A stretch of DNA of 60,258 nucleotides from a virus (Duplodnaviria > Caudoviricetes), in IMG/VR virus record IMGVR_UViG_3300046002_006203, positions 1 to 60,258 of that record. The stretch is one strand, 5' to 3'. Position 1 is the stretch's first letter, and every line of letters starts with the position of its first letter. Positions 1 through 59,200 of the stretch are shown here, piece by piece. A program made the translations under genes and the position numbers. A model generated the notes under the pieces. It was not told where the DNA came from. It worked only from the letters and a program-made list of their open reading frames with translations, and made no database searches.

Positions 1-127
1 CCTGACCGGCAAAAGCGCAGTCAATGCCGAGTCAGGCATGAAGATCACCTTCACCAACGCTGGGGCAAAGAAGCTGTCTGGCCGCAAAGGCGATATCCTT
101 TTCCGTTCTGTGCCAGCATTGCGCGCT
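1..127 (+). repeat. 127-bp terminal direct repeat, copy 1 (circular assembly overlap)
   Basis: Identical to 60132-60258; lies inside a reading frame that continues across the join. Confidence 0.97.
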
Positions 128-3100
128 ATCATCGAAAATGGGGTTGTCGCGTCCACATCACCGGAAACCAAAGGCCGCCAGCACATCAAGGCGTGGCACC
201 ACATTTCCGCAACGGTCGTCATTGATGGGAAGCCGCGCGACCTGATCGCCCATGTCTTTGAAACACAGGACGGCAGTTTTCACTATGACCTTTCGCGGGA
301 TATGAGCGACGGGGCTAGGTTCATGCGCCTGAGCGCGGATACCTCGATTGCGGAAGACCGCTACGGTTTGGAAGACAACCCCGTCGAGGTGAATATAGAC
401 TTTGCGCCCGAAGTTGGCAAGGCTGATGGATCGGTTCCCGTGGGAGCGATGCGCGGCATAACGGCATCCTTGAACAAGGAACTCGCCAAATCCGGCCTTA
501 CTGGCAAGGTTTACCCGATCTTGGTTCGCCGGTTGCTTGGCGAATCCGGTGTTGAAATCGCTGGGCGCCAGCAGGGCCACAAGATCGAAATCAACGAGGC
601 CGTCAGCGACAAGATCGGCGTGCTGCGCCATGAAATCGTCCACGCCCTGCGCGATGATGCGCTCTGGGATAAGCCATTCGGCCTGTTCACCGGCGCGGAG
701 TGGAAAACCCTTGTCGCCCATGCCCGCGCCAACGAGGACATGATGGCGCGCATTGCCAAGGCCTATCCGAACCTGAACACCGCAGGCCAGATCGAGGAAG
801 TTGTGGCCGAACTCTACCGCGAGTGGGCGCAGGACCACGACACCAAGTCGGCAGTCGGCAAAGCCTTCGACAAGATCCGCGCCATGTTCCGCGCATTTGC
901 TTCGGCCCTGCGCGGCGAAGGGTTTGATGATGCGGCCCTTGTCATGGAGCGGATCGCGCGCGGCAAGATCGGTGGGCGCGGGCCGGATGGTCCGATGGGC
1001 GGCGGCAAGAAGGCCGCGCCTGAAATGCGCGCGCCCAGCGTTGAAAGCGCAGCCTTCAAGGCATGGTTCGCCAACAGCAAGGTGATAGACGGCGATGGAA
1101 AGCCGCTGGTGGTTTATCATGCCACAAACGCTGACTTTAATGCCTTTGATCGCGCTAAACTTGGTAGGAATGTTACGGCTGCCAGCACCAAAATGGCGGC
1201 AACTGCAAAGATTGGACACTGGTTTTCAGATCACGACATATCGTCGGATGCCGCAATGGCAGTTGTCATGCCGACATACCTTTCAATTGCAAATCCAATT
1301 GAAACTGATCTGTTGTCACTAGCTGATGCAATCGAATCTGCTGGCGGCCCAAAGCGGTTTATTCTGGCGGCACGAGAACAAGGCCATGACGGGGCTATCG
1401 TGGTCGATGAAGAGTTTGGTGGGAAGTCATATGTTGCCTTCTCACCAACTCAGATCAAATCCGCATTCAATCGCGGCACTTGGGACGCATCCAACCCAAA
1501 GATTTCTGAAATGCGTCTGGACCTTCTGAAATCGAAGGCGACTGCGCTGGTAGGCACCGGCCACTGGCGCAGCCCGTCTGACTGGCTGACCGATGCGATG
1601 AACGGCAAGAGCGGCTATAACACCCTGTCATTGGTCCCAAGCCGCCCGCTGTTCAGTGAACTTGGAAAGTGGTCATTCGGTGCCAAGGCTTACCTCAAGG
1701 CCAAAGAGGGGATGGATGCGCTCCGCAACGAATGGCACGCACGGGCCGATGTGGTATCGCAGGCATGGTTGAAGATCGCCCGCAAGAACCAGAAGGCCAA
1801 TGAGTCCTTCATGGAACTGATGCACCTGTCCACTATCGAGGGGATCGACCCGTCGCGCGTGGATACTTGGGAACACCCGTTCTATGGCGTCGCCAAGGCA
1901 TCTATCGCCCGTCTGGGTGACAAGGCTCCTGACTGGGCCAAGGACGCTGTGCGGGCCACTGAGCGGCACCACGCATCCTACAAGAACCTGACCGTCCTGT
2001 ATGACGCGCTGCCTGCCGAGTTTCAGGCGATGTATCGGAAGGTGCGGAACGAATACGACGATCTTGGCGACGACTTTGAAAAGGCCGTGATCGACAATAT
2101 CCGCCAAGGCACCAAGATCGGCATCAAGCGGGCCGAGCGGGCCTATCAAAAGGAGTTGGCGCGGATCAAGGACGAGGGATTGACCGGCGACGAGAAGGCC
2201 GAGGCAGAGGAAAAGGCCAAGCAGGCCCATGACGCGGTGAAATCGCGCGGCGGCTGGGCATCGGAAGCGCGGATCGGGATGCTGCGGCAGACCTTCGAGT
2301 CCAATCGGTTGAAGGGGCCATATTTCCCGCTGGCGCGCTTCGGTGATTTCTTCGTCACCACCCGCGACCACACCGGCAAGGTTGTGTCCTTCGCCCGCTT
2401 TGAAAGCGTCAAGGATCAGAAGGCGTTTCAGGCCGAGCAAGAGGCGCTCTATCCGGGCAAGGTCCAGATCGGCACCATGTCCAACAAGGAAGAGTTGAAG
2501 TCGCAGGTTGACCCCAACTTTGTGGCCGATGTGGAGCGGATGCTTGCAGAGTCCGGCGCTTCTTCCGAGGTTATGGATGCCGTCTGGCAACGCTGGCTGG
2601 AGACATTGCCGGATCAGTCAATCCGCACATCGAAGATCCACCGCAAGAACCAAGCTGGTTTCGCCAAGGATGCCTTCCGCGCGTTTGGCAAGCATATGTT
2701 CCACGGCGCGCACCAACTGGCACGCCTGCGCTACGGCATGGTGATGGAGGAACACCTGAACGATGCCGAGGACGAGGCGCGCAAGGCAAAAGACCCCAAC
2801 CGCGCTGGCCTGATCGTCAACGAAATGCGCCGCCGCCATGAGTTCACCATGAACCCGCAGGGCAACGCTGTGGTAGCGTCCATGTCTGGGCTGGCCTTCA
2901 TCTGGTATCTGGGAGCAACGCCAGCCGCCGCCCTTGCCAACGTGTCCCAGACAACCGTTGTCGGCATCCCGATCTTGGCCGCGCGCTTCACCAAGGCGGG
3001 TTTCTCCGGGGCCATGTCCCAGATCGCCAAGGCGACCAAGGATTTTGCCAACGGGAAGGGCCATGCTGACAAGTCGGCAAACCTGACCGACGCCGAGCGC

Positions 3101-4393
3101 GACGCCTTCCGCCAAGCCTACAAGCGCGGCACCATCGACAAGACGCAGGCGCATGATCTGGCATCGGTGGCCGAAACAGGCATCGAATACAACGCGCGCC
3201 GCGAGAAGGTGATGCGCGTGATCGGCGCCATGTTCCACCACACCGAGCGGTTCAACCGCGAAGTGACCTTCCTCGCAAGCTACCGGCTGGCCGTGGCCGA
3301 TGGGCTGGCCCATGAGGAAGCGATTGACGCCGCCGCAGATTCGACGTGGAAAATCCACTTCGACTACCAGAATACGAGCCGCCCGCGCATCATGCAGAGC
3401 GATATCGGGAAGTTGCTCACGGTCTTCCGCAACTACTCTGTGAATATGCTGTGGCGTCTTTTCCGCGATACACATCAAGCACTTAACGGTGCAAGCAAGG
3501 AGGAACGGGCGGAGGCGCGCACCCAACTGATCGGGCTTTCGCTGTCAATGATGGCGCACGCCGGTATCAAGGGCGTCTGGGGCTACGGCCTGATTATGAT
3601 GCTGCTGGGCATGTTCTTCTCTGGCGGTAGCGATGATGCCGAGGAATGGTTGCAAGACGCATTGCTGATGGAGGGCGACTCCGCTGGTGTCGCGGCTTGG
3701 AACTATGCCATGGGGGCCGCGCTGCAAGGCATCCCCGGCCAAGTCGCAAGGATAAACCTGACGGACCGGATCGGTATGCCAAACCTGTGGTTCCGTGGCG
3801 CCGACCGCGACCTTGAGGGCGAGGATCTCTACGCGCACTATGTAGGGGAATTGCTGGGTCCGGTCTTCGGGATTGGCGAGGGCGTCTTCCGTGGTGTGTC
3901 GTTGGCTGCGGATGGCAACCTGTGGCGCGGGACCGAGGCGGCATCCCCGAAAGTGATCCGCGACTTGATGAAGGGGTATCGCTTCGCTGCCGATGGCGCG
4001 CTGACTCTGAACGGCGACGATATCGTGGCCGATGTTTCGCCCTACCAGATCATCATGCAGGTCAACGGTTTCACCCCCGCCCAGATCGCGGAGCGTTACG
4101 ATATCAATAACCGCCTCAAGAATGGGGAAAAGCAGATCGTTGACGAGCGCACCGGCATTCAGCGTGAGGCTGGCGATGCGCTGCGGTCTGGCGCGGGGCT
4201 TTCGGAATCCATGATTGAGAAGATCCGCGACTTCAACCGGCGATACCCTGAATATCCGATCACCGGCGAAACCATCGGGCAGTCGATCAAGAGCCGGATG
4301 CGGGCCAGCAGCCGCAACGAATCCGGCATTGCGTTGAACCCGAAATTGAACGACCGGCTTCGGTCAGAAGAGCCTCCGGCGATATACAACTAG
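2..4393 (+). CDS. darB: C-terminal part of the giant DarB-like protein (LPD3-like, HExxH zincin, ADP-ribosyltransferase-like, PLxRFG domains)
   Basis: In frame with the 47266 ORF via the terminal overlap; HEIVH 629-643; FKAWF..PLVVYHAT..YVAFSPTQIKS ~1050-1500; YFPLARFG 2321-2344. Confidence 0.88.
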   Translation: MTGKSAVNAESGMKITFTNAGAKKLSGRKGDILFRSVPALRAIIENGVVASTSPETKGRQHIKAWHHISATVVIDGKPRDLIAHVFETQDGSFHYDLSRDMSDGARFMRLSADTSIAEDRYGLEDNPVEVNIDFAPEVGKADGSVPVGAMRGITASLNKELAKSGLTGKVYPILVRRLLGESGVEIAGRQQGHKIEINEAVSDKIGVLRHEIVHALRDDALWDKPFGLFTGAEWKTLVAHARANEDMMARIAKAYPNLNTAGQIEEVVAELYREWAQDHDTKSAVGKAFDKIRAMFRAFASALRGEGFDDAALVMERIARGKIGGRGPDGPMGGGKKAAPEMRAPSVESAAFKAWFANSKVIDGDGKPLVVYHATNADFNAFDRAKLGRNVTAASTKMAATAKIGHWFSDHDISSDAAMAVVMPTYLSIANPIETDLLSLADAIESAGGPKRFILAAREQGHDGAIVVDEEFGGKSYVAFSPTQIKSAFNRGTWDASNPKISEMRLDLLKSKATALVGTGHWRSPSDWLTDAMNGKSGYNTLSLVPSRPLFSELGKWSFGAKAYLKAKEGMDALRNEWHARADVVSQAWLKIARKNQKANESFMELMHLSTIEGIDPSRVDTWEHPFYGVAKASIARLGDKAPDWAKDAVRATERHHASYKNLTVLYDALPAEFQAMYRKVRNEYDDLGDDFEKAVIDNIRQGTKIGIKRAERAYQKELARIKDEGLTGDEKAEAEEKAKQAHDAVKSRGGWASEARIGMLRQTFESNRLKGPYFPLARFGDFFVTTRDHTGKVVSFARFESVKDQKAFQAEQEALYPGKVQIGTMSNKEELKSQVDPNFVADVERMLAESGASSEVMDAVWQRWLETLPDQSIRTSKIHRKNQAGFAKDAFRAFGKHMFHGAHQLARLRYGMVMEEHLNDAEDEARKAKDPNRAGLIVNEMRRRHEFTMNPQGNAVVASMSGLAFIWYLGATPAAALANVSQTTVVGIPILAARFTKAGFSGAMSQIAKATKDFANGKGHADKSANLTDAERDAFRQAYKRGTIDKTQAHDLASVAETGIEYNARREKVMRVIGAMFHHTERFNREVTFLASYRLAVADGLAHEEAIDAAADSTWKIHFDYQNTSRPRIMQSDIGKLLTVFRNYSVNMLWRLFRDTHQALNGASKEERAEARTQLIGLSLSMMAHAGIKGVWGYGLIMMLLGMFFSGGSDDAEEWLQDALLMEGDSAGVAAWNYAMGAALQGIPGQVARINLTDRIGMPNLWFRGADRDLEGEDLYAHYVGELLGPVFGIGEGVFRGVSLAADGNLWRGTEAASPKVIRDLMKGYRFAADGALTLNGDDIVADVSPYQIIMQVNGFTPAQIAERYDINNRLKNGEKQIVDERTGIQREAGDALRSGAGLSESMIEKIRDFNRRYPEYPITGETIGQSIKSRMRASSRNESGIALNPKLNDRLRSEEPPAIYN

Positions 4394-4431
4394 CGCCGGA
4401 GCGCAATATCTGGTATCCATCGCCTCGTAGG

Positions 4432-4489
4432 CGCATAGGACGTGCGGCGGTCAATAGGGTTTATCCCAGCAGATCGAGAGCGTCATATG
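4432..4489 (+). promoter_or_regulatory. Lysis-operon leader: GGA-loop hairpin and alternative start-sequestering stem
   Basis: CGCAT-AGGAC-GTGCG (4432-46); CATAG.GACGT (4434-43) can pair with GCGTC.A.TATG (4480-89). Confidence 0.7.
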
Positions 4490-4552
4490 TTTGCAAGCAC
4501 ACAGAATTTGCGCTGCAACTATTCCGCACCTCCAGCATTGGGGGCGCAATAG
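4487..4552 (+). CDS. 21-aa leader uORF coupled to the holin
   Basis: GAGAG then ATG 4487; MFASTQNLRCNYSAPPALGAQ; its TAG overlaps the holin GTG at 4552. Confidence 0.4.
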   Translation: MFASTQNLRCNYSAPPALGAQ

Positions 4553-4935
4553 TGCAGGGCGAACCAATCACATTTTGGGACAACATTATCGCCTTCTTTG
4601 GGGCGATCTGTTTTTGGCTGACCGGAGAGAGCGGGCGCGTCTTGGTCGCGTCTGGCCTCGGCGGCTTGGTTCGCTGGTTCTCGATGGAGAAGCGCCGGAT
4701 CAGAACTGGCGTCATGTCCATCGTCGGCGGTGCAATCTGCGGGTTCTACCTGTGGCCCATCATCCTGCGTATCCCTACGGTCTGGGGCGCGGAAATTATT
4801 GATAAAGCGCCTGAAAATATCGCCATGGCTGGTTTCTTGGCGGGGACTATCGGCGTTTCGGCTGTGAAAATCATCACGGCAATCGTGGAGGCGCGCGGCC
4901 TGAAACTCGCACAGGGGAGTGACCCAGATGCGTGA
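4552..4935 (+). CDS. Putative holin
   Basis: 127 aa with several hydrophobic segments, directly upstream of the endolysin. Confidence 0.7.
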   Translation: MQGEPITFWDNIIAFFGAICFWLTGESGRVLVASGLGGLVRWFSMEKRRIRTGVMSIVGGAICGFYLWPIILRIPTVWGAEIIDKAPENIAMAGFLAGTIGVSAVKIITAIVEARGLKLAQGSDPDA

Positions 4936-5035
4936 TCGGCCAGTGCGGAAGGTCTTGCGTGAAGAGGCCCGCACTTGGGGCGTCATTGCAATCATCTTGC
5001 TGATCTATCTGGGGGCGCACGCATGGACTACCTGA
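4928..5035 (+). CDS. 35-aa single-TM protein (antiholin or lysis accessory candidate)
   Basis: MRDRPVRKVLREEARTWGVIAIILLIYLGAHAWTT; GGGAG upstream; overlaps both neighbours. Confidence 0.5.
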   Translation: MRDRPVRKVLREEARTWGVIAIILLIYLGAHAWTT

Positions 5036-5634
5036 CGACTTTCAAAGGCAAAGCAAAGCCTATCGACCCTGTGGACTATGGCCGCCTTGGTCGCCTTTTG
5101 TCTGTTGGAGAGGACGAATTGCGCGCGGTGGTCGAGGTGGAATGCCGTGGCTCTGGGTTCGATGCGCTTGGCCGCCCGAAGATGCTTTTCGAGCCGCATG
5201 TGTTCTGGCGCGAACTTGGCGAACAGAAGCGCGTCGTCGCGTTCAATCAGGGACTCGCTTATCCGAAGTGGGGAACCAAGCCATACCCCAAGGACAGTTA
5301 CCCCCACCTTGAGGCCGCGATGAAGATCGACCGGCCCTGCGCCCTGCGTGCAGCGTCGTGGGGGCTGGGGCAGATCCTCGGCGTGAACCACAAGGCCGCT
5401 GGCTATGCCAGTGCGGAAGCGATGGTTCTGGCCTTCCTTGACGACGAGGAAAAGCACCTTGAGGCTATGGTGCGATTCATCTTGGCCGAGAACCTTGATG
5501 ATGATCTTCGCCGCCACGATTGGAGCGGATTCGCGCGGGGCTACAATGGCCCGAAGTATGCCACCCATGGGTATCATACCAATCTTGCGGCGGCTTACGC
5601 CAAGTGGGTCGCGCGCCCTGATGTGAAGGCATAG
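5023..5634 (+). CDS. Endolysin, N-acetylmuramidase (DUF3380-like)
   Basis: AVVEVE..G.GF, LFEPHVF, SWGLGQILG.NH, W..FARGYNGP.Y motifs. Confidence 0.9.
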   Translation: MDYLTTFKGKAKPIDPVDYGRLGRLLSVGEDELRAVVEVECRGSGFDALGRPKMLFEPHVFWRELGEQKRVVAFNQGLAYPKWGTKPYPKDSYPHLEAAMKIDRPCALRAASWGLGQILGVNHKAAGYASAEAMVLAFLDDEEKHLEAMVRFILAENLDDDLRRHDWSGFARGYNGPKYATHGYHTNLAAAYAKWVARPDVKA

Positions 5635-5638
5635 GGCG

Positions 5639-5911
5639 ATGAACCAGACCATCATCATTGCGGCCCTTCTGATGGTCCTTGGCGCGGGCGGGGCAGGCTA
5701 TGTCAAAGGTCAGCGCGATAACGAGGCGCGGCATGTTGCGGCGGCGCTGGAGCAGGCCGAGGCCGATGCAGAGGCCGCGCGCAAACTTGCGGCAGCCGAG
5801 CAAGAGGCGCGGCTCCTCGCGCGGGAATTGGAGGATCGAGCCTATGCGGACCCTGTTGCTGTGCCTGTGTGCCTGTCTGCTGACAGGGTGCGGCGGCTCA
5901 ATCTCCGCTAG
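5639..5911 (+). CDS. i-spanin (Rz-like)
   Basis: N-terminal TM followed by an Ala-rich coiled coil and a C-terminal Cys; after the endolysin. Confidence 0.75.
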   Translation: MNQTIIIAALLMVLGAGGAGYVKGQRDNEARHVAAALEQAEADAEAARKLAAAEQEARLLARELEDRAYADPVAVPVCLSADRVRRLNLR

Positions 5912-6047
5912 GCCCGCTGTTCCCCCCTGCGCTGATCCTGTGGTGCTGCCGGATCGGGCGCTGTCGGATCGGGACGTGGAGGTGATGTGGGGCCGTGACC
6001 GATCTGCGCTGCGCGAGTGCGCCGCGCGTCTGAAATCTCAACTCTGA
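5844..6047 (+). CDS. o-spanin lipoprotein (Rz1-like)
   Basis: GGAGGA RBS; lipobox LLTGC; Pro-rich; overlaps the 3' end of Rz. Confidence 0.8.
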   Translation: MRTLLLCLCACLLTGCGGSISARPAVPPCADPVVLPDRALSDRDVEVMWGRDRSALRECAARLKSQL

Positions 6048-35246: not shown

Positions 35247-35420
35247 GTGCTGATGAAACGAGTCCACCTGTCAGAAGGCCCGCAGCGCATCCGCATCGGA
35301 GAGGCGATCATTCACATTCAGAAGATTGGCGAAAACCGCGTCACATTTATGATCGACGCTCCGAAAAATGTGCAGGTTGAAGCCCTAGATCGGCCAATCA
35401 CCAAGCCCATTGAAGAATGA
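35247..35420 (+). CDS. csrA: CsrA/RsmA-like RNA-binding protein, 57 aa (not in the ORF track)
   Basis: AGAGGA RBS, GTG start; MLMKRVHLSEGPQRIRIGEAIIHIQKIGENRVTFMIDAPKNVQV aligns by eye with the CsrA pattern ML...GE.I.IG..I...V.....VRIGI.AP..V.V. Confidence 0.7.
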   Translation: MLMKRVHLSEGPQRIRIGEAIIHIQKIGENRVTFMIDAPKNVQVEALDRPITKPIEE

Positions 35421-35506
35421 CCCCTATATATGGTATGGGGGGATACCACCACGCATAGGAAGTGCTTGGGTCAACCGTTTTTTGACCGAAGGAGCATGAC
35501 TTATGC
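35410..35506 (+). promoter_or_regulatory. Capsid-operon promoter and leader switch
   Basis: TTGAAG-N18-TATGGG; GCAT-AGGAA-GTGC (35453-65); alternative long stem covers the SD and ATG. Confidence 0.7.
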
Positions 35507-36603
35507 TTACGAATATGGGTGTTGGCGATCCGCGCGCCGTGAAACGCTGGGCGACCAGTCTCGCCGTTGATACCGACAAGCAGTCCTATTTCAGCCAGCG
35601 TTTTGTTGGCGAGGGCGAAAACAACATCATCGAACGCAAGGTGGATCTGGAAGACGACGCGGGCGACCGCATCCAGTTCGACCTTTCGATGCGCCTGCGC
35701 GGCGGCATGACCTTCGGCGATGATGTGATCGAAGGCTCCGAAGAGGCGCTGACGTTCTACTCGGATGAAGTCCGCATCGACCAAGCGCGTAAGGGCGCAT
35801 CGGCGGGTGGTCGCATGACCCGCAAGCGCACGCTGCAAAACCTGCGCCGGATCGCCAAGGACCGCACCTCCGAATACATGGCTGAATGGATTGACGAAGG
35901 CTTCTTTGTCTACCTGTCGGGCGACTCGACGTTCTCGGCAGTGAACCAAGACGCCAAGTTCGGTGAGGCATTCGCTGGCAACGCCGTGACCGCGCCCGAC
36001 GCCTCGCACATCGTCTATGGCGGCGCTGCAACCTCGAAGGCAACCATCGCAGCGACCGACAAAATGTCGATGGCTCTGCTGGAGCGCCTGTCGGTGAAGC
36101 CTCGCATGATGAACGCGGTGAACCCCGATGTGGTCAAGCTGTCGCCCATCACCGTGGACGGGGCCAAGCGGTTCGTCGTCCTCATGTCGCCGTTCCAAGC
36201 GCACGCGCTCCGCACCGAAACCGGCGATCTGTCGTGGCAGAAGATTTCGCAGGCGCTGGCAACCTCGGAAGGCCGCAACTCGCCCATCGTCAAGGGCGGC
36301 ATGGGCCTCGTCAACGGCTTGGTCTTGCACGAGCATGAAACTGTGCGCCGGTTCAGCGATTACGGTGCCGGTTCCAACATCGCCGCTGCCCGCGCCCTGT
36401 TGCTGGGCCGCCAAGCTGGCGTCGTGGCCTACGGTGCCGGTGGCAATGGCACTCGCATGACGTGGGTGGAGAAGATGTTCGACGCCGACAACCAAGTCGC
36501 AATTTACTGCGGCGTCATTATGGGCATCAAGAAGACCGTGTTCAACGGCCTCGACTTCGGCGTTGTCGCTGTCGATACCGCCTGCGCTGATCCCAACGCC
36601 TGA
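35503..36603 (+). CDS. Major capsid protein (N4-gp56/DUF4043-like)
   Basis: DL..DAGDRIQFDL..L.G...GD...EG.EE.L; position after the scaffold; AAGGAG RBS. Confidence 0.9.
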   Translation: MLTNMGVGDPRAVKRWATSLAVDTDKQSYFSQRFVGEGENNIIERKVDLEDDAGDRIQFDLSMRLRGGMTFGDDVIEGSEEALTFYSDEVRIDQARKGASAGGRMTRKRTLQNLRRIAKDRTSEYMAEWIDEGFFVYLSGDSTFSAVNQDAKFGEAFAGNAVTAPDASHIVYGGAATSKATIAATDKMSMALLERLSVKPRMMNAVNPDVVKLSPITVDGAKRFVVLMSPFQAHALRTETGDLSWQKISQALATSEGRNSPIVKGGMGLVNGLVLHEHETVRRFSDYGAGSNIAAARALLLGRQAGVVAYGAGGNGTRMTWVEKMFDADNQVAIYCGVIMGIKKTVFNGLDFGVVAVDTACADPNA

Positions 36604-47175: not shown

Positions 47176-47270
47176 TTGCTGCAATCGCACCAAATGGGGT
47201 ATGGGTAACGAACACCGGCTGCCATAGGATGTGTCAGCCATAGATACGACCGTGAGGGAACGTCTATGGC
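47176..47270 (+). promoter_or_regulatory. darB promoter and leader switch
   Basis: TTGCTG-N18-TATGGG; GGCTG.C.CAT-AGGAT-GTG.T.CAGCC (47217-39); two GCCATAG strands complementary to the start region CTATGGC. Confidence 0.7.
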
Positions 47271-50200
47271 GATTGACTTTGGCTTTGGCCCTATGGGCGC
47301 TATTCCTGAACCTCTGACTCCCGACCAAAAGCGGAAGAAAGTCGAAGGGATCGCGCTCAAGACGCAGGTTCCGGCCAACGTCCTGATGGCTCTCGATGAA
47401 GCCGGTATCTCCGACCATGAGGGCGCTGCAACGCAGATCGCGGCGGCCATGGCTCAAGGCAAGCCGCTTGATGCCGCAGTGGCGGATATTGCAGGCAACC
47501 CCGACACCGCCAAGGCGCTTATGAGCCGTGCCTATGACATTGCCGATGCGCTCTACCCGCGCGCCGCAGCGCCAGCGGCAACACCTGACACCGGACGGCC
47601 AAAAGAGGCGAACCTTTTGCGGGATGTGGCAGGGGTATTGGCGGTCGGCGCATCTGATGGCGCCGCAATGGGCGTTGAGTATCTTGGGTCTGCTGCCGAT
47701 CAGGGCATTTCTGGTGCCGCCTATGCCGCGAACAAATACCTTGCGAACCCAATACTCGAAGGCATCACAGGCAAAAAGGACATGCTGCCGACAGCCAGCA
47801 AGCCGCTTGATGTTCCGATAGCGGCTACGGCTGCAAGGGTTATTGCAGGATGGCTGGGAGAAGAAGGGCTTTCCGGCTATCTCGATGAAAGCCTTGTTTC
47901 GCAAGCGGCTCTGGATGCAGAGCAAAACTTCATGCCAACGGGCGACATTACCGACCCTTCTACACTTGCATGGGGGAAAGATCCGACCATTCGGGGTGCG
48001 GTGATTTCAGGAGCGCGCGTGCTTGGCACAATGGTTCCCGTGATCGCGGCATCGCTGTTGAGCAAGAACCCGACAATTGCAGCCGGGGCGGTTGGTGGCT
48101 TGATGGCCGGTGGCGATGGGCAACGACTTGCGGCCGACACAGTTGACGCCAAATGGGCTGAGAAAATGCCTGATGGCCGGTCACGGCTGGAAGCCGAGAC
48201 GCCGCTTTTCCAGAAATACCAATCAGAAGGCATGACTCAGGAACAGGCAAAAGACCGGATCAGGTCCGATGCTATGGCGTGGTCTGGTAATCTTCAGGCC
48301 GTCGTTGGCGCGTTTGGCGGTGCAGCAACCGGCGCAATAGCACGCGGAGGGCTTGCTAGAGCGGCGGGTGGGGGGATGGCCCAACGTGCGTCCGTATCCG
48401 GCATTGGGGCTGGGCTTGAAGAAGGCGCCCAAGAGGTTACGGAGGGTGTCGCCGCCCGAACCGGCATCAACATAGGTGCCGGAACTGATATCAGTGTCAC
48501 CGCCGAGTCATTTCCCAACGCAGTCCTTGGCGCAATGGGCGGCGGGCCTTTTGGTGCTATCGCTGGCGCAGCAAATGGGCCGCCCCAGCCTGTCAACCAG
48601 CCTAATCCCATCCCTCCCCAAACCTCTGGCGATGGCAGCGCCAGGGGCCAGGCTCCCGATATTGGTGCAGACGCCGGTTTTGCACCCGTGTCGGGGGCCG
48701 ACCAAGGCTTTGGTGCGATTCCACCCGAAGCCGCTCCGGTGCAGCCCGCAGCCCCGACCGGCCCGATTTCGGCGGCAGCGGCTAAGGCTCCCGACATGAC
48801 CCCGCAGCCGGTGGCGCCGGAAGCCCCGCCCATGTTCCCTGACATGAAGGCAGGCGCGGAAGTCCGCTTGAAGGCACCGGATGGCAAGATCTACCCCGCC
48901 AAGTTTCAGCGGGAAGAAGGCGGGATGGCCGTTGTCCGCATCGGCGGAAGCGAAGTCAGCATGTCGCCGGAAGAGTTCGATATGGCGGTCTATTCGGCCC
49001 GCATTGACGACGTAGAGGCCGAAGCTGCTGTCACCGGCAAGCCGATCAAGACTGCGCCCACGGCAAGCCCTGACGAGATTTTCGGAAATGTCGGCCCCGC
49101 CGACCCAGTGAAGCCCGACCTGTCACGCCCTCCCGTGCTGGCCGGATCGCTTGCGGCCCAAGCGCAGGCGAAAGGCCCAGCGGTTGCCACGCCTCCAGTG
49201 ATCGCTGGGCCTGCTATTCCCGCTAATCCACCCGCCGACGCCGGAAACAAGGCAAGCGAATTGCCTTCGGCCTTGGGCAGCATGGGAAAGGGAATGGCCG
49301 ATGGCCTCTATGATATGCTCTGGTCCAACGTCGAAAAGGGCAGCGTCAAGGATGCCAGCGGGTCCACAGACCCTATCCTGAAAGCCGCCAAGCGCGTGCG
49401 CTCCGTCGCTGGCAACACCCTGACTCGTGAAAACTTCAAGGAGTTTGCCCAGTCGCATTTCGCAATGATGCAGTTGCCGATTGAACAGCGCAGCAAGGTC
49501 TATGCGGAACTGGTGGCGAAATACACACCGGCAACCGGAGGTCAGAAAGATGGCGAAGCAACCACAGCCACCGTTCCCAACCCCGCAGCAAGCGGCGGAT
49601 TGGCTGGCACGGCACAAAATGATCCTGCCATCGGAAGCGCAGGAGATCCGCAACCTGCTGTGGAAGCAGGACTCAATCTGGATCGGCCCACAGAGTCACC
49701 TGTATCCAGCAATGACCAAGATCGCGGTTCTGAATTGGCCGATGCCGAGCCTGTCGGTCCACTGACCGGCAAAGTCGGCCAGCATTTCGCTGCCGGTGAC
49801 GAGCCGTTTACGACGAGCGGACGCAAAACCACGCCATTCCCGAAGATCGACGCCGCCTCTGAACGCAAGACTGCCAACACGGTCAAGCGGGTTGAACAAT
49901 GGCTGATGGCAAACGCTCTGGCCGAGGCCGAAGCGCGCGGTGACGACTTCAACGCCACCATGTTCCGCGCCAATCTCGAAAAGCCCAGCCAGTCGGACAA
50001 GGACTCCGCAGAGGCTTATTTGTTCGATGATGCCATGTCGGCAAAGAACATGCCGCCCGCGCCGAAGATCACCAAGCCTCTGGTGGCCGACAAGCCAGCA
50101 GACAAGCCGGATGAAAAACCGGAAGAGAAAAAGGAACCGTCCCTGCGCTGGGACACAGCCAAGGATTCTGGCCGCATTCCAGACGGCTATAGCGTGGAGG

Positions 50201-53200
50201 TTCAGGACGGCGATGTGTTTGGCTTCTACGGGCCGAACCGCAAGCAATTCTTCCCCGCTGGCCGAACCTTCATGGCGGAACGGGATGCCTCACAACACGA
50301 ACGCGACGTTGATGTGATGCTTAACCGAATGACTCAGCGGGCGGCGAAGAACGCGGATCGTGACGCCGAGGATGATAAGAAGCCGGATCAACCGGCCACC
50401 CCTGAATCCGCGCCTGAGGACGGCGCCGATACATCCAATGCGGCCCAGATGGACGCCGCTGCCGCCGAGGCCGACCCCAATCCGACACCGGCGCAGGCCG
50501 AGGCTGGCAACTACAAGCACGGCCATATCATGTGGAACGGGCTGGATCTGACCATCGAGAATGCCAAGGGTTCAACCCGCACCGGCGTCTCTGCCGATGG
50601 GCAGGAGTGGTCCGTCACGATGCCAGCGCACTATGGCTACATCAAGCGCACCACCGGCGCGGATGGTGAGCATGTGGACGTTTACATCGGGGAATCGCCG
50701 GAAAGCGATTTCATCATGGTGGTCGATCAGGTTGACGCCGAAACCAAGGAGTTTGACGAGCATAAGGTAATCATCGGCATCACCAGCGCGGCCAATGGCA
50801 AGGCGCTCTATGAGGCAGGTTTCTCGGACGGCAAAGGCGCGGCCCGCTTCGGAGGCGCGCGGAAAATGACCGTGGACGAGTTCAAGACTTGGCTGGAGGA
50901 AGGCGACCTTTCAAAGCCGGTCACGAACAAGGTCAGGGCGGCGCCGGGGCCGAAGATCGAGGACTTCGGGCAGAAGATTGGCGGCGCACGCAAGGACAAG
51001 GCTGCGCGCTCCATTCAGGATCTTCGCGCAGACCGCAACACCGCCACCATGACGCTGACCGAGGCATTCCCTGAGCCGGATTATGAGGCGCTGGCCGCAA
51101 ATGGCGTCGATGTTGAACGTCTCGCCTTCGCTGCCGTGGCGCGGTCCACCATCGAGCGCAAGCCGGTGGCACAGAGATACTGGAAGATTTCTTACTGGGT
51201 GAAGGAGGTAGATGATCGCCGCATGATCGTGGCCGACCTTCTGGATGGTGTGATTGATCTTCCGACCGCAATGAGCCGTATCGGGTTCTCCGGTGAAGGC
51301 CAGCCTGCCTTGATTGATATGGTCAAGCGGTTCCCCGTGGACATGATTGCCGAGGCGGCATCCTACAAAGCGCACCCTAACACCACCCACTTTTCCTATT
51401 CGACGGACCCAGCAACTGGAATCCGCACCTCTGTCACGTCCAAACGCTTCGGGATTGGCCGCCCGAATGACAAGAGTTACCGGATCAGCGCGACCTATCC
51501 GACCATTGATGATGCGGTTGTGGAAATCAAAGCCATGATCGAGGCGGAGCGCAAAGCGCGTGCTGCGGCTGGGCCTCTCAAGCGCACACGCAAGCCGGTT
51601 GCCTTGGGTATATGGGCTGGCAATGGCAATCTCTTCTATATCGGGTTCAAGGTTACTGACTGGGTGCAGTTGGCCGGTCCATTTGCCACCCGCGAAGATG
51701 CCAAGACCCACCTGAGCGAGAACCGCGAGTCTTTGCAGGAAGAGGCCGAAGTGATGCGGGATGGACCGGCAGAGCGCCGCACCACCAACTCGCCGCGCGT
51801 CGGGCCGGATCACCGCACCGGCAATGTGACACCGGAGCAATTCCAGAAGGCATTTGGCTTCCGTGGCGTGGAATTTGGAAACTGGACCACCGGCACGGAT
51901 CGTCAGGTGCGCTTGAATGAAGCCTACGACGCCCTGATGGATATGGCCGGTGCGCTGAATATCCCGACCGAGGCAATCTCGCTCAATGGTGCGCTGTCTC
52001 TGGCCTTCGGTGCGCGTGGAAAAGGTGGGCGCAACCCCGCCGCCGCGCATTATGAACCCAGCTATGTGGTCATAAACCTGACCAAAGAGAACGGTGCAGG
52101 ATCGCTGGCGCATGAATGGTGGCACGCGATCGACAACCATCTTGCCAAGTTGGATGCCGTGGGCAGCGACACGCCTGCCGCCATGTCTGGCACCAAGTCA
52201 AAGCGCCGCGACGAATATGCGACCGACCGCGCCCGCCGCACCGGCAGCCTGTCCGAAGCCGAGTGGACCGCGCTCAAGAAGCTGAAAACTGCCCTGACGC
52301 AGAAATCTGCGCCATGGTTCCTCCGGTCCCAAGCCTTCGACCGCGCCCGCTCTGAACCCTACTTCTCTACCACCATCGAACTCGCGGCGCGCGGGTTTGA
52401 GCGTGTCGTCACGGACAACCTGCAAGCGCGCGGGATGAACAACGACTTCCTCGCCAACATCGAAGAGGGTGCTGGCGCATATCCGACCACCGCAGAGGCC
52501 CGCCGCCAAGGTGTGCGCGATGCCTTCAATGATGTGCTGGACGCAGTTTCAGCGCGCCTGTCCGAAGGTGGCGGCACCAAGGTCGAACTGCCGCCCATCG
52601 ACCCGCAGCTTATCGAGGATGGACCGCAGGCAGGGTTTGAGTGGGAAAGCCCGACCGGCATCAAGAAGATCACCGCCCGCAATGGCGATCAGGTGACGAT
52701 GGAAACTCAAAAGCGCGGCGGTGGTGTTTACACGGACGATTGGCCTCTCGCTCATGTCGAGGACATGATCGACGCCGACCAACAGGCCATGTCGCCGGAG
52801 GGCATCGCTGCGCGTGAGGTCAAGGAAAAGGCCGCCGCCATCGCAGAAGAAAAGCGCTCTGCCAATGAAGCGTTGTCGGGCAAGGCCGAGGAATTGGTGG
52901 GCCAATTCATCTGGTCGATTCCGAAGGCCAAGCGGGGCCGTATTCCCGAAACCATCCGCTATGGCTCCATCGGCCTGCGGACCGGATCAGACTCGGACGC
53001 GATCTACCTGCCAAAATTTGTTCATGTGGTGCGTCTGGTTGACGCTGGCTGGCGTGTCCGGTCTGGCTTTAAGGGTGTGGAAAACCTGTATTCGCCTGAC
53101 CGCACCAGTTACGACAAGGTTTTCGACAAGAACCTGCTGGCCTTCGCCAAATGGTATGGCGACAAACTGAACGACGAGGCTGACACCGCAGAGGCAGAGC

Positions 53201-56200
53201 GGCCCGATGCCGCGTCGGAAGAGGATCTGGCACACCTCTTTGGTAAGGACGCGCCGGAACCGCTCAACGCCCCTGAGTTGATTGATCCGCCGGAAGAAGA
53301 GCCTGCCTCTACCGAGCCTGCGCCACCCGTGCAAGAGCCTCCTGCTGATCCGGCACCCAAGCCCGCACCGAGCGGCTTGAAGGGGCTGACGGAGGCGGAA
53401 AACGAGCAGTTGGCGGCCCTTGAGGCCCAGTTCCTCGATATCTTCAAGACGCAGATGAACTCCGGCCTTGATCCGAAACTTGTATCGGTCGCGGCCCAGA
53501 TTGGCGCGCTCTATGTGAAGGCTGGCACGCGCCGGTTCCGCGCGCTGATCGACGCCATGATGCAGCGCCTTGGATTGACGCTGGAGCAGGCACAGCCCTA
53601 CGCCCGCAATGCCTACAACCAGATCCGCGACGATATGGAACTGGCTGGTGAAGATATCGCTGACATGGACAGCAGCGCGGACGTGATCGCAGAAGTCCGC
53701 AAGATGCGGATCGTGGAGGCAAAAGCAGGGGGAAAGCCCGCCTCGCAAGGTGATGCAGAACCTGCTACAGTCGCGCCAGAGGCACAGGAGGGCGCTGCCA
53801 ATGACCAAGCAGGAAGTGGCGATGCGAGTAATGGAGTCGTGGCGGACGGCGCACCCGAAAGTGGTGACGCTGTGGAAGCCGGAACTGCTCCAAGTGGAAG
53901 CGGACGCGATGGCGGGGATGATCTTGGCGGAAGCGAAGGCGAATACGTTCCCGCTGGACCGGATCGAACCCCAAGTGTCGGAAGCGATGGCCCTGATGCT
54001 GCGTTCCCCGCCGCCGATGCCAACGCGGCGTCAGCGCAAAGCGGCGTAACTCCGCGCTCTGGCGTCAGCCAAGGCAATTACCAGATCACGGACGCACTTG
54101 GCCTTGGCAAAGGCACGGACGGCCAGAAGATCGCTGGCAACATCGCGGCAATCCGCCTTGCCCAGAAGATCAAGGCTGAAAACCGCTTTGCGACCAAGGA
54201 AGAACAGGACACTCTGGCCCGCTATGTTGGATGGGGCGGCCTGAAAACGGTCTTTGACGTGAAGAAGGCCAAATCCACCGACCAGTGGGGCAAGGCGCAG
54301 CGTGAGTTGAAGGAACTGCTGTCACCGGCAGAATATCTGGATGCTTTCCAGACAGTTTCCAACGCGCACTATACCTCCAAGCCGGTTGTCGATGCGATGT
54401 GGCGCGCAATGCGTCACTTCGGGTTCAAGTCGGGCCGCGCTCTTGAGCCGACCGTGGGTGTTGGCAACTTCTTGGGCGCGCAGCCCGCCGATATGGCGCC
54501 GGTCACGGAATGGTTTGCCTCCGAACTGGACACCATCACCAGCCTGATCGCCTATCACCTCTATCCCGATGCAACGATCCTTCCGGCGACCGGCTTCCAA
54601 GACGCACCGTTCCGCGATGGCTCGTTTGATATCGTGATCGGAAACCCGCCCTTCGGTGGCGAGACGATCAGGGACCGCAACCCCGCGCGCAAGCACCTGT
54701 CGGGGATGAAGATCCACAACTACATCATCGCCAAGGCAGGGATTCACCTTCGCCAAGGCGGGATCATGTCGATGGTGGTCACGCATCGGTTCCTCGATAC
54801 CGACAACGCCGAGGCGCGCGATGTGCTGGCAAAGGGATTCCGTTTCGTGGGCGCAATCCGCCTGCCGAATGACGCCTTCCGCGACAACGCAGGCACCGAT
54901 GTTGTCACCGATATCATCTTCCTGCAAAAGCTGGCCGAGGGTCAGGAGCCGGATCTTGCCGCCGCGTGGCTCGACACCAACGGCACTATCACCGTGGACG
55001 GAAAGCCAATCCGCGTGAACCGTTACTTCCAAGATCACCCTGACCATATCCTTGGCAAATCGGCCATGGACGGCACGATGTATGCCAAGGGCGGGAAGAA
55101 TGGCACGGAATACACCGTCCACGGCGATGGCCGCGACGTTGCGGCTGCAATCGACCGCGTTCTGACCGAAGGCATGGCCGCAGAGAAGGGCATCCTTGGC
55201 GACCGCGCGAAGGCGCTGGAAGAGGCTATTGCAGCCGAGGACACCTCCAAGATGGCAATCGGCAGCATGGCAATGCTGGATGATGGCCGGATCATCCGCC
55301 GCGAAATGAACCGCAGCATTTCTGAGGTGACGGAGCAAACCTTCTGGGGCGAATACGCAGAGCAATGGTCCTTGGCCGCCGACGCCATTGCCCAGATCCG
55401 CGACAACATGCGGGCCGGGAAGAAGCCGGATCAGGACCATATCGACCAGCTTCTTGACCAGAAGGACGTTGCCTACCTCAAGAGCGGAAAGAAGGCTTCC
55501 AAGCCCAGCCGTGTCGAACAGGCTTTCTACGATATCGTGGATGCAATCATTGATGGCAAAGCCGAATGGGCATTTGACGAGCAACTGGACCTGATCCGCG
55601 ACCATTCCGACAATAAGCGGATCGGAGCCAAGCGGTTCAAGACGCTGACCGGCCTGCTGTCCCTGCGCCGCAATACCCTCGCCCTGATCCGCGCCGAGTA
55701 TCAGGATTCGCCCAAGATTGAGGCCATGCGGAAGTCTCTGGACGCGCAGTATGAGGCGTTTGTGGCAGCCCATGGGTTCATCAGCAATCCGGCTGTGTCT
55801 GGACTTCTGCAAGGCGATATCGGGCCGGAAGTCGGCTTGGAGTCCAAGTATTCCGAGGAACTCAAGGGCGAAGTGAACGGCAAAAAGGTTATCGTTGAGC
55901 CTGAGTCAGCCACCAAATCCTCGATCCTGTCGCGCCGCGTCAACTATCCGCACAAGACCAATTTCACGGCAAACACCCCCAGCGAAGCCCTGTTGATTTC
56001 CATGTCGGAGCGGGGCCGCGTGGACCTTGCATTCATGGCTGAAACTCTGGGGCGCGACGCTGCCGAGATTCGGGCCGAACTGTCGCAAGGCAACGATCCT
56101 GAAATCTTCTTCGACCCCGAAACCGAGACTTGGGAACACGCAGAGGCGTATCTGACCGGCAATGTCCGCGCCAAGATGCAGAAGGCCTATGCCGCTGGCA

Positions 56201-59200
56201 TGATGGTGAACGGCGACGCATTGAAGAAGGTGCAGCCCGCGCCAATGACTTCTGACCGCATCGTTCCGGCAATCCGCAGCCAGTGGATTCCAGAAGAGGT
56301 CTTTGAGGACTTCCTGTCCGATATCGGGCTGAAGGAGGCCAAGGTCACGATCATGCCACGGGCCGGTATGGTCACGGCAACGGCGCGCGAAACGTCTTCG
56401 CTCACCGATTACGGCCAGCAATTCAGCAACTCGCACAAAACCATTGTCGATATTTTCACGGCAGCCGTGAACGGCAAGACGCTGACCGTCAGCTACAAGG
56501 ATGAGAATGGCAACACCCGCAAGGATGAGGAAGGCACCAAGCAGGTTACAGCCCTGATCGAGCGCATGGGCAAAGAGTTCCGCGCATGGGCCTATCTCGA
56601 CCCCACCCGCACCGAGGCCATTGTCACGGCGTTCAACGAGAAGATGAATGTGTTCCGCAAGCGTGAGTTTGACGGCGAAAAATACCTGAAACTGGTGGGG
56701 GCCAATACCGGAGCCGGTGGGTTTGAACTCCGGCGCACCCAGAAGAATGGGGCATGGCGCATCATCCAGCAGGCATCCGTGCTACTGGATCACGTTGTCG
56801 GGGCAGGCAAGACCCTGACGCTTGTTGCTGGCATCATGGAGCGCCGCCGTTTGGGACTGTCGCGCAAACCCATGATCGCAGTCCCCAACCACCTTGTCAT
56901 GCAATGGACGCGCGATTTCTTGCAGTTTTACCCTGCCGCGCGCATCTTGGCGGCCACGCCGAAGGATTTTGAGGGGGAAAACCGCAAGCGCATGTTCGCA
57001 CGGATTGCCACAGGCGATTTCGATGCCGTTATCATCGGCCACTCGTCGCTTGGTTTCATCCAGCCGCCCGAATCCGATTTGCGCGACGTGATCCAAGACC
57101 AGATCGAAGAGTTGCAGCAGGTTCTCGATGAAGCCCGCCGCAATGGCGAAAGCAAGCGCACGCTGTCCCAGATCGCAAAGCGCCTGCAATCCTACGAGGA
57201 CAAGCTGGACGAGCTGTCCACCAAGAAGCGCGATGATCTTGGGTTCGACTTCGCGGAAATGGGCATCGACTACCTCGCAGTAGACGAGGCGCACGAGTTC
57301 AAGAACCTCGAATACAACACCGCCCAGCAACGCCTTGTCGGCATGAACAACCCGACCGGTTCCAAGCGCGCCTTTGACCTTCTGGTGAAGGTCCGCGGCA
57401 TCCAGAAGCGCAAGGGGGCCGTCCACTTCGCCACCGGCACGCCGGTTTCCAACTCGCTTGTCGAAGCCTATTCGATGATGAAATACCTCGCTTACGATGA
57501 ATTGAAGGCGGTGAATCTGGCGCATTTTGACGCTTGGTCTGCGGCCTTTGTCGAGGCGGAAACGCGGTTTGAATACACCGCGACCCAGAAGTTGAAAGAG
57601 CGTAAGGTTATGTCGCGCTTGGTCAACCTTGGCGTTCTGTCGCAGATCTATCGCGGCTTTGCGGACGTGATCGACCGCAATGACCTTGAGCGCATCTATG
57701 CCGAGCAGATCCGGTCTGAGAACGCAAAAAACGGCGAGAACAAGAGTGAGCGTTTCCCAACTCCACGAGTAAAGGGTGGCGCACGCCGGTTGCTGTCGGC
57801 CCCGCCGACCGAGTCGCAAAAGTTGGCAACGGATTGGTTTGTCTCCCGTATGGCAGCGATCAAGGCGCGCGCATCCGACAAGGAATACCCGAAGATTGAC
57901 AATGCGCTTTGGGTTCTGTCTGACGCGCGCAAATCGTCGTTGGATATCCGCACGCTGCGCGCCGCATCGCAGATGGACCGTGATGAAAACGGCAAGGTCA
58001 TGCGCGCATCGCGCGAAATCAAGCGCATCTATGACAAGTGGGATGAACAACGCGGGACGCAGCTTGTGTTCTCGGACCTGTCCACCCCGTCCAAGAATGC
58101 CGACAAGGCCGCAGAAAAGGCGATCCGCGACTTGCTGCGGGTTGCGCTTGGTGAGTCTGAGGCAAAGACCTTCTACGAGAAGATCAAAGACCTTCCTTTC
58201 ATGGAGCGGTTCGAGGCGGCATCCGAAGAGGCCGAGACAATCGCAAGCGATCCGATCACCGACGAAAAGCGGCAGGATGCGATATCGGCTTGGTTTGCCG
58301 ACAATCAGGATGCGGCGGGCCTGATGCTGACCGCAGAGACTGGGTTCTCCGTCTATGATGATATGCGGAAGGTGCTGATTGAGGAAATGGGCATTCCCGC
58401 CCATGAGATTGCCTTCATCCACGACTACAATACGGCAGAAGCCAAGGCCAAGCTGTTCAAAATGGTCAAATCCGGGCAAATCCGCGTGCTGTTTGGATCG
58501 ACACCGAAGATGGGCGCTGGAACAAACGTGCAAGAGCGGGCCGTTGCACTGCACCACGTCGATAGCCCATGGCGACCGTCTGATGTGGAGCAGCGCGAAG
58601 GCCGCGTGATCCGGCAGGGCAATGACCTATACGATGCAGACCCAGACGGCTTTGAAGTCGAGATTCTGGCCTACTCCACCACCGGCACCTCTGATGTGGT
58701 GCTGTGGCAAGTTCTGGAGCGCAAGGCACGCTCCATCGGCACCTTCCGTCAGGGCGAACTGGACGCGGTGGACGAGGGCGAAGGCGACGCGGACAGCTAT
58801 GCCGAGTTCATGGCGCAATCGACCGGCAATCCCGTCTTCAAGTTGAAGATGCAGGCTGAAAAGGATCTGGTCGAACTGACTGCGACCACCTCCGGCGCTC
58901 TTCTGAACCGCCAGCGCGCCAAAGACTTCGTGTCGTCCTTTGATCGCGTGCGCGGGGATAATGCGGCCGCACTAAAAAATGCCAAGGACACCGATCCGGC
59001 GTCGATTTCATACACCTTGCCGACCGGCGAAAAGATCGAAGGCGATGCTGCCGAGTTTACCGCGGCGATGAACGAGGCGCGCGAGGCGTTCCAAGCCGAG
59101 GTGGATGCTTGGGATGATGCCTTTGCCAAGGTCAAAACCCGTCGCGCGCAACTGAACGACGAGGGCAAGAGCCGCACCGAGGCCATGAAAATCCTCAAGG

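Follow-up and report, generated by a model that had tools for sequence, protein, structure and literature searches.

How does a phage make its holin when the start codon of the holin gene is folded away in stable RNA? This question is raised by a 158-nt spacer in IMGVR_UViG_3300046002_006203, a lake-water phage record that is scored complete at 100%, is 60,258 bases long with terminal repeats of 127 nt, and was analyzed over its whole length (hereafter the window; G+C = 0.607). The spacer separates the stop codon of a giant virion gene from the lysis cassette, all on the same strand, and it would serve as the control region of that cassette, in two modules. The first (4406–4489) is a copy of a late-gene leader, with an upstream box, an AGGA 5′ arm, and a long hairpin that has a Shine-Dalgarno (SD) site plus a start codon in its 3′ arm. 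The second (4487–4563) is a 21-codon open reading frame (ORF), which we term the mini-ORF, running from the leader ATG through a second hairpin to a stop codon on the holin GTG. On balance, we lean toward a relay in which holin translation is coupled to the mini-ORF, whose translation would unlock the buried start. The elements of the locus are as follows.

4406 to 4416, plus strand: conserved upstream box of the late leader, ATATCTGGTAT, which resembles an extended −10 promoter element
4432 to 4446, plus strand: small GGA hairpin, CGCAT-AGGAC-GTGCG, with a 5-bp stem (one G·U) and a 5-nt loop with AGGAC
4434 to 4489, plus strand: hairpin B, the leader hairpin, with the AGGA arm paired with the region around ATG 4487
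4474 to 4478, plus strand: weak SD sequence of the mini-ORF, GAGAG, aligned with AGGAG of the head-gene leaders
4487 to 4552, plus strand: mini-ORF, 21 codons from ATG 4487 plus TAG 4550–4552, which overlaps the holin GTG 4552–4554 by one base (TAGTG)
4507 to 4563, plus strand: hairpin C, −29.0 kcal/mol, z −4.77, equaled by 0 of 200 shuffles, pair probabilities 0.7–1.0
4552 to 4935, plus strand: holin, 127 aa, several transmembrane (TM) segments, GTG start (phrog_13918, 1.5e-12; holin family phrog_2359, 2.3e-4)

Hairpin C is a helix of ≈23 bp in which CCUCC (4529–4533) pairs with the holin SD sequence, GGGGG (4540–4544), and 4513–4523 pairs with 4548–4557, the TAG and the GTG included; the downstream SD sequence and start are thus sequestered inside the reach of the mini-ORF. 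For 69 candidate gene starts in the phage, we computed how much energy it takes to open positions −15 to +5 within a context of 100 nt; the candidates, each the first start codon in an ORF whose GC pattern is gene-like, surely include some errors. The holin start ranks first of the 69 at 22.9 kcal/mol, with the next at 18.3 and most between 7 and 16. When a ribosome footprint is placed on the 5′ arm of hairpin C, the residual cost of the holin start drops to 8–13 kcal/mol. The holin SD sequence is strong (energy −8.4, with just 4 of 56 genes stronger), and the masking therefore hides a good site. The start itself is supported: GTG 4552 is the first start codon in frame, and the N termini of 26 aligned homologs, among 28 found beyond the window's own protein, agree within a few residues. 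No terminator-like site was found at 4507–4575, nor does a hairpin with a U-tract follow the mini-ORF as in a leader-peptide attenuator. The CCUCC strand opposite the holin SD sequence (4526–4534) translates as Pro-Pro within an Ala-Pro-Pro of the mini-ORF, and motifs like Ala-Pro-Pro are of a kind that can slow ribosomes.

The mini-ORF has a start in a structure of its own. Hairpin B (−21.7 kcal/mol, z −2.9, equaled by 2 of 200 shuffles) pairs 4434–4437 with 4486–4489, 4439–4443 with 4480–4484, 4448–4452 with 4472–4476, and 4457–4459 with 4465–4467, and the cost of opening ATG 4487, 11.8 kcal/mol, is ordinary among gene starts. An earlier, sequence-only reading of this locus had described the small hairpin, an alternative stem, the 21-codon ORF, and the TAGTG overlap, and all of these can be read from the sequence at the positions above. 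It had also held that the alternative stem sequesters ATG 4487, and this stem is indeed the minimum-energy fold, with all three bases of the ATG paired (P 0.94–0.95). Its further statement, that this ATG rather than the holin start is sequestered, must be revised, since the holin start is buried as well, in the separate and stronger hairpin at 4507–4563.

The part of the spacer at 4406–4489 is a paralog of the leader of the major head gene, with ATG 4487 aligned with the start codon of that leader. Two further copies bear on this relation.

35416 to 35508, plus strand: head-gene leader, the reference copy (ATG 35503); 61.2 bits, E 5.6e-12, when scored with a model trained on relatives alone
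47182 to 47271, plus strand: third, divergent leader copy before the giant gene ATG 47266; 12–14 bits, E 0.5–1, not significant alone, with a copy at the same place in the related phage G006

The head-gene leader and the spacer share, at identical spacing, the blocks ATATnTGGTAT, 15 nt, CGCATAGGAnGTGC, 3 nt, and GGTCAA, and their ATGs align. A pattern made from the invariant columns of eight head-gene leaders, in all of which TGGTA is invariant, has exactly two matches in the window, at 4411 and 35431, and none in 100 shuffles; ATATNTGGTAT likewise has only two exact matches in the window, at 4406 and 35426. A −35-like element, TTGAAC, stands 18 nt from the upstream box in the head-gene copies and is absent from the lysis copy (no TTG). 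A putative promoter role for the box might be read from this resemblance, and a sigma-70 scan did not call the box as a promoter. Were the box a promoter, transcripts would be predicted to begin near 4426, 35447, and 47210.

The leader hairpin is a real, conserved, and covarying structure. We folded 18 leader copies singly and without constraint (12 head-gene copies, Bcep22 included, two giant-gene copies, and four copies that follow the giant gene). At least two bases of the start codon are paired in 16 of the 18, and the base that follows GGA finds a partner in 14 (C-G in six, A-U in five, U-A in three). The helices given by RNAalifold are GCA with UGC (start codon included), GGAnGU with ACn′UCC, and an apex helix; across seven relatives, 94.7% of cells are paired as compared with 35–46% in slid controls, a figure obtained with an alignment that had been fitted to the model. 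AGGA and the GUG that follows are invariant in all leader copies, and one G of this GUG is unpaired in most long-hairpin folds. The leader family is new to Rfam: the whole window has no gathering-score match, and nothing better than E 2 lies near either leader. One match of the motif scan, L029, was dropped as an unrelated AT-rich contig, and in Bcep22 the motif has a second match, within the giant gene, that is probably due to chance.

The small GGA hairpin fares differently. Folded alone it reaches −7.9 kcal/mol (z −2.3, equaled by 6 of 200 shuffles), and equivalents can be drawn throughout the leader family, but it and hairpin B are mutually exclusive, its pair probabilities in the ensemble are 0.0 in context, and its probability at equilibrium is ≈0. 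The covariation of the base after GGA, whose partner lies in the 3′ arm of the long hairpin, speaks for the long hairpin, not for the small one. The 170-nt stretch as a whole folds only moderately better than its shuffles (z −2.1, 8/200). The idea of a lysis switch relayed to the holin by coupling thus survives in one half: the coupling gains from the ATG at the conserved start position of the leader, from the use of that position as a first-cistron start in three relatives, and from the locked ribosome-binding site of the holin, whereas a GGA switch stays hypothetical, the small hairpin being thermodynamically outcompeted.

From these observations we propose the following course of events. 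Ribosomes would load inefficiently at ATG 4487, and their translation of the mini-ORF would melt hairpin C. At TAGTG, the terminating ribosome might reinitiate, or a fresh ribosome might take the exposed GGGGG, and holin would be made. Holin output would then be a small, fixed fraction of the activity of the late leader. The first cistron after the leader would have been reduced to 21 codons, with an overlapping stop that favors reinitiation. Lysis would probably be switched on only through translation of the mini-ORF; we infer the use of ATG 4487, the dependence of the holin on the mini-ORF, and any effect on timing.

Variation among strains bears on which feature of the spacer matters. Contigs of near-identical strains from four runs, aligned at ≥80% likeness, differ at 10 sites in the final 194 nt of the giant gene, each of them a third codon position, at one site in the 158-nt spacer, and at one in the first 249 nt of the holin. 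The spacer variant, A4521G (two runs), changes the hairpin C pair A4521-U4550 to G·U and Tyr12 of the mini-ORF to Cys. At this single site, the pattern is what one would expect if the structure, and not the peptide, were under selection.

A leader copy follows the giant gene in all four phages (window included) that have sequence past the giant gene stop, and what comes after it differs among the three relatives.

G010, a complete provirus (holin 44% identical): the leader ATG opens a 133-aa ORF of no known family, and its TGA overlaps the GTG of the holin homolog
G011: the leader ATG opens a 130-aa multi-TM protein of holin-like character, with an amidase and spanins after it
G006: the leader ATG opens an unrelated 115-aa gene, after which the contig ends

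The leader ATG is therefore the start of the first cistron in three relatives, and it heads a lysis cassette in three of the four phages, the window counted. After its holin homolog, G010 has a small TM gene, an amidase, and spanins. By hhalign, no relation of the G011 multi-TM protein to the holin family can be detected (probability 0.3). The first cistron of G010 (L002:1577–1978) contains two hydrophobic stretches and has a peptidase-like match that is not significant. The earlier reading had named conservation of the stop/start overlap among relatives as a check: the first-cistron stop of G010 does overlap the holin GTG, and the mini-ORF together with a masking hairpin is found at none of the 10 other loci with holin homologs.

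Several results weigh against the relay and have to be set beside the evidence above. These 10 loci (L001 and L003–L011) have opening costs of 3.7–14.6 kcal/mol at their holin starts; they belong to other phage types and are without the leader, for which leader model R1 gave no match in L001 or in the genomes containing L003, L005, and L006. The holin start of G010 is unmasked as well (7.4 kcal/mol), and hairpin C is for this reason specific to the lineage of the window. The mini-ORF could arise by chance, given that an ORF that opens with ATG, has 21 codons or more, and stops on the holin start is found in 4.5–6% of shuffled spacers (5000 shuffles) and in 15% when TAGTG is held fixed. Its G+C at third codon positions, 0.52 versus about 0.70–0.80 in genes, reveals no coding bias, the duplex of its SD sequence with the anti-SD has an energy of only −3.0 kcal/mol (stronger in 39 of 56 genes), and hairpin B pairs its ATG. 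The descent of the spacer from the leader is also weaker by score than by motif. The covariance model trained on seven relatives gives the spacer copy 9.3 bits (E 4.3), a low score because the TGGTA/TACCA helix is lacking and the apex is different, and no significant local alignment joins the spacer to the genome (blastn E 0.2; ungapped score 15 versus a shuffle mean of 14.9). Because neither is significant, the paralogy rests on the collinear motif blocks. Finally, a recombination boundary near 4370, instead of constraint, could account for the low variation of the spacer.

What, then, might the mini-ORF be if not a relay? The alternative that survives best, although we regard it as unlikely, is a constitutive throttle, in which hairpin C would keep holin translation low through breathing or ribosome standby, and the mini-ORF would be a passive by-product of the leader ATG. 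The strength of the masking, the weak SD sequence and missing codon bias of the mini-ORF, and the ability of G010 to manage with an unmasked start are all consistent with a throttle, and structured holin starts are known in lambda. Against a throttle, the hairpin lies wholly inside an ORF with a conserved start position and a stop placed exactly on the GTG, and a barrier of 20 kcal/mol over a strong SD sequence would be expected to allow almost no direct initiation.

A less probable account, which we rate as rather improbable, holds that the locus is an evolutionary remnant: a first cistron like the 133-aa ORF of G010 would have been deleted and its 5′ end fused to the holin ribosome-binding site, with the ORF and the overlap as leftovers that have no selected role. 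G010 does have a full ORF at the same place, a local match of ≈20/24 nt (a weak similarity) joins 4520–4542 to its codons 4–12, and the SD sequence of the mini-ORF is degenerate, so the mini-ORF could, against the relay, be what a deletion left behind. Yet the spacer has one variant site while neighboring synonymous sites vary, the variant preserves the base pair, and ≈22 nt used by the outer helix of hairpin C are missing from G010. Processing or stability, with hairpin C or the hairpin over the giant gene stop (hairpin A, below) acting as an RNase III-type or stabilizing site at which the lysis mRNA is parted from the transcript of the giant gene, is very improbable, for although both are long, near-continuous helices with no U-tract, it leaves unexplained why the SD sequence and start codon are paired and why the ORF ends on a start.

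If the mini-ORF relays the activity of the leader, what might act on the leader itself? A small protein encoded by the phage is a plausible candidate.

35253 to 35420, plus strand: CsrA-like small protein, 55 aa (PF02599, 23.4 bits, E 6e-5, cut-off 27), directly upstream of the head-gene leader

All 10 members of this family match PF02599 (best 3.1e-8), and CsrA/Rsm chains make up all nine of the family profile's best PDB matches, eight with E values between 3.3e-5 and 0.047. The gene order scaffold-like gene, CsrA-like gene, leader, head gene is found in 11 distinct metagenomic phages and Bcep22 (the window, L012, L014, L016–L020, L030, L032, L034, and Bcep22, where the CsrA-like gene is gp54). 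The relatives in this set were collected by way of the leader motif and the head protein. Because the gene stands beside the head-gene leader in all 12 genomes, its product is a candidate ligand. The residue equivalent to Arg44 is not conserved in these proteins, being Ala, Lys, or Arg, and is Ala in the window protein. A second GGA at the SD sequence, present as AGGAG in the head-gene leaders, is absent from the lysis copy (GAGAG). PF02599 was not found in four Paracoccaceae genomes that carry prophages with holin homologs, a result of little weight for the phage of the window. That the CsrA-like protein binds the AGGA of the leader is a tentative hypothesis, to which we give a rather low probability. 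In its extended form, similarly doubtful, the protein would bind the invariant AGGA of three late leaders (head, giant virion, and lysis) and shift them between a closed hairpin and an open form; one regulator would then time both morphogenesis and lysis, and the mini-ORF relay would scale the holin to a small fraction of the signal.

The surroundings of the spacer are those of a late region, with these features.

38 to 4393, plus strand: giant DarB-like virion gene, 3′ part (phrog_10089, E 1.3e-257), with TAG 4391–4393
4372 to 4404, plus strand: hairpin A, over the giant gene stop codon, −18.7 kcal/mol, z −4.27, equaled by 0 of 200 shuffles
4928 to 5035, plus strand: conserved single-TM protein, 35 aa, overlapping the holin end and the endolysin start
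5023 to 5634, plus strand: endolysin (N-acetylmuramidase; PF11860, E 2.2e-50)
5639 to 6047, plus strand: spanin pair, i-spanin 5639–5911 and overlapping o-spanin 5679–6047 (Rz-like spanin PHROGs)

The phage is Bcep22-like with a full 60-kb genome, and its major head protein is ≈50% identical to the counterparts in Bcep22, Parlo, PEp14, and Atu_ph08. The giant gene starts at 47266 as an ORF (47266–60258) with no stop at its 3′ end and continues across the terminal repeat of 127 nt; it matches the DarB-like PHROG of Bcep22-type phages. Joined across the repeat, 47266–60258 and 38–4393 would encode roughly 5,750 aa. Hairpin A, with pair probabilities of 0.97–1.0, has no U-tract 3′ of its stem, and the terminator scan makes no call there.

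Within the cassette, the TAGTG overlap is in itself ordinary, as 8 of 30 close same-strand gene pairs in the phage overlap too. GTG 4552 is the sole holin start before residue 31, and a dual start of the lambda S type is absent. The sequence TGGGGGCGCA has just two exact copies in the window, 4539–4548 and 5010–5019, each 3 nt ahead of a start codon, that of the holin and that of the endolysin. No family in Pfam or PHROG was matched by the 35-aa protein; its EEARTW-type motif and TM segment recur beside the holin homologs in L002, L003, L005, L006, and L007, and the protein could be a holin partner or an antiholin candidate. The nearest holin relatives, P0002–P0005 (65–84% identity), are represented by protein sequences alone; a first-pass scan of the viral collection with the holin protein and a tblastn search of cultured phages gave no match. 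A Pseudogemmobacter prophage (L003:1855–1977) has a 40-codon ORF between a long upstream gene and the holin homolog, with ATGA overlaps at both ends and no leader, a further case of a short ORF linked to this holin family.

These results can be placed among known regulators. Lessievirus (Bcep22-like) genomes have a gene for a “CsrA-like regulator” upstream of the major head gene in the descriptions given by the relevant parts of PMC9144972, PMC10269572, and PMC7366521; the first of these, in its treatment of the gene, regards it as a moron of unknown role, and the portions of these three and of PMC8310193 that deal with phage CsrA genes annotate them with no named RNA target. Bcep22 shares the gene order of the window, and its spacer carries GCGCAGGATGTGCG, with the complement directly before the head-gene ATG; unlike the window, its holin leader is without the element. 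As in CsrA/RsmE-GGA systems, an AGGA could be presented in a 5-nt loop on a stem of 4–5 bp, and a putative CsrA-family protein is encoded by the phage. Unlike in those systems, the Arg44 equivalent is not conserved, the lysis copy is without a second GGA at its SD sequence, the small hairpin is unpopulated, and binding is here a prediction from sequence. The conserved, covarying AGGA leader beside a CsrA-like gene offers a concrete candidate target, and, if the hypothesis is true, these leaders would be the first cis-targets for the CsrA genes of Bcep22-like phages.

In lambda S, a stem-loop lies upstream at the holin start, and the window phage resembles it in that RNA structure at the holin start would tune production. 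The lambda S dual-start motif, as outlined in part of PMC9841429, has no equivalent here: the frame offers neither a second start nor a Lys codon, and the holin belongs to a different family. That the rate of holin translation sets the time of lysis has been addressed for lambda in bioRxiv 10.1101/2025.05.14.654169. Termination-reinitiation at overlapping stop and start codons (the account in a section of PMC9841429, citing Huber et al. 2019) is matched by the one-base TAGTG overlap and a strong SD sequence just upstream of the restart codon, but the upstream partner here is a 21-codon ORF and not a full gene.

The closest parallels to the proposed relay are found in systems where translation of one frame exposes the start of another. 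The lysis gene of MS2 is activated by termination of coat translation. In Salmonella, the small ORF mgtQ opens the mgtB ribosome-binding site, as described in an excerpt of PMC8092293. Like both of these (for mgtQ, by the same excerpt of PMC8092293), the window has a downstream start in a stem-loop that overlaps a short upstream ORF and would be exposed by its translation. What sets the window apart from both is that a dsDNA-phage holin would be the target, that one base belongs to stop and start alike, and that the upstream ORF begins in a duplicated late leader. Coupling by unmasking is thus a known mechanism, and its use of a leader-derived mini-ORF on a dsDNA-phage holin, described in no paper among those that full-text literature searches turned up, would be a new application. 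Overall, a locked holin start that is reached via a mini-ORF would gear lysis to the expression of late genes in a different way.

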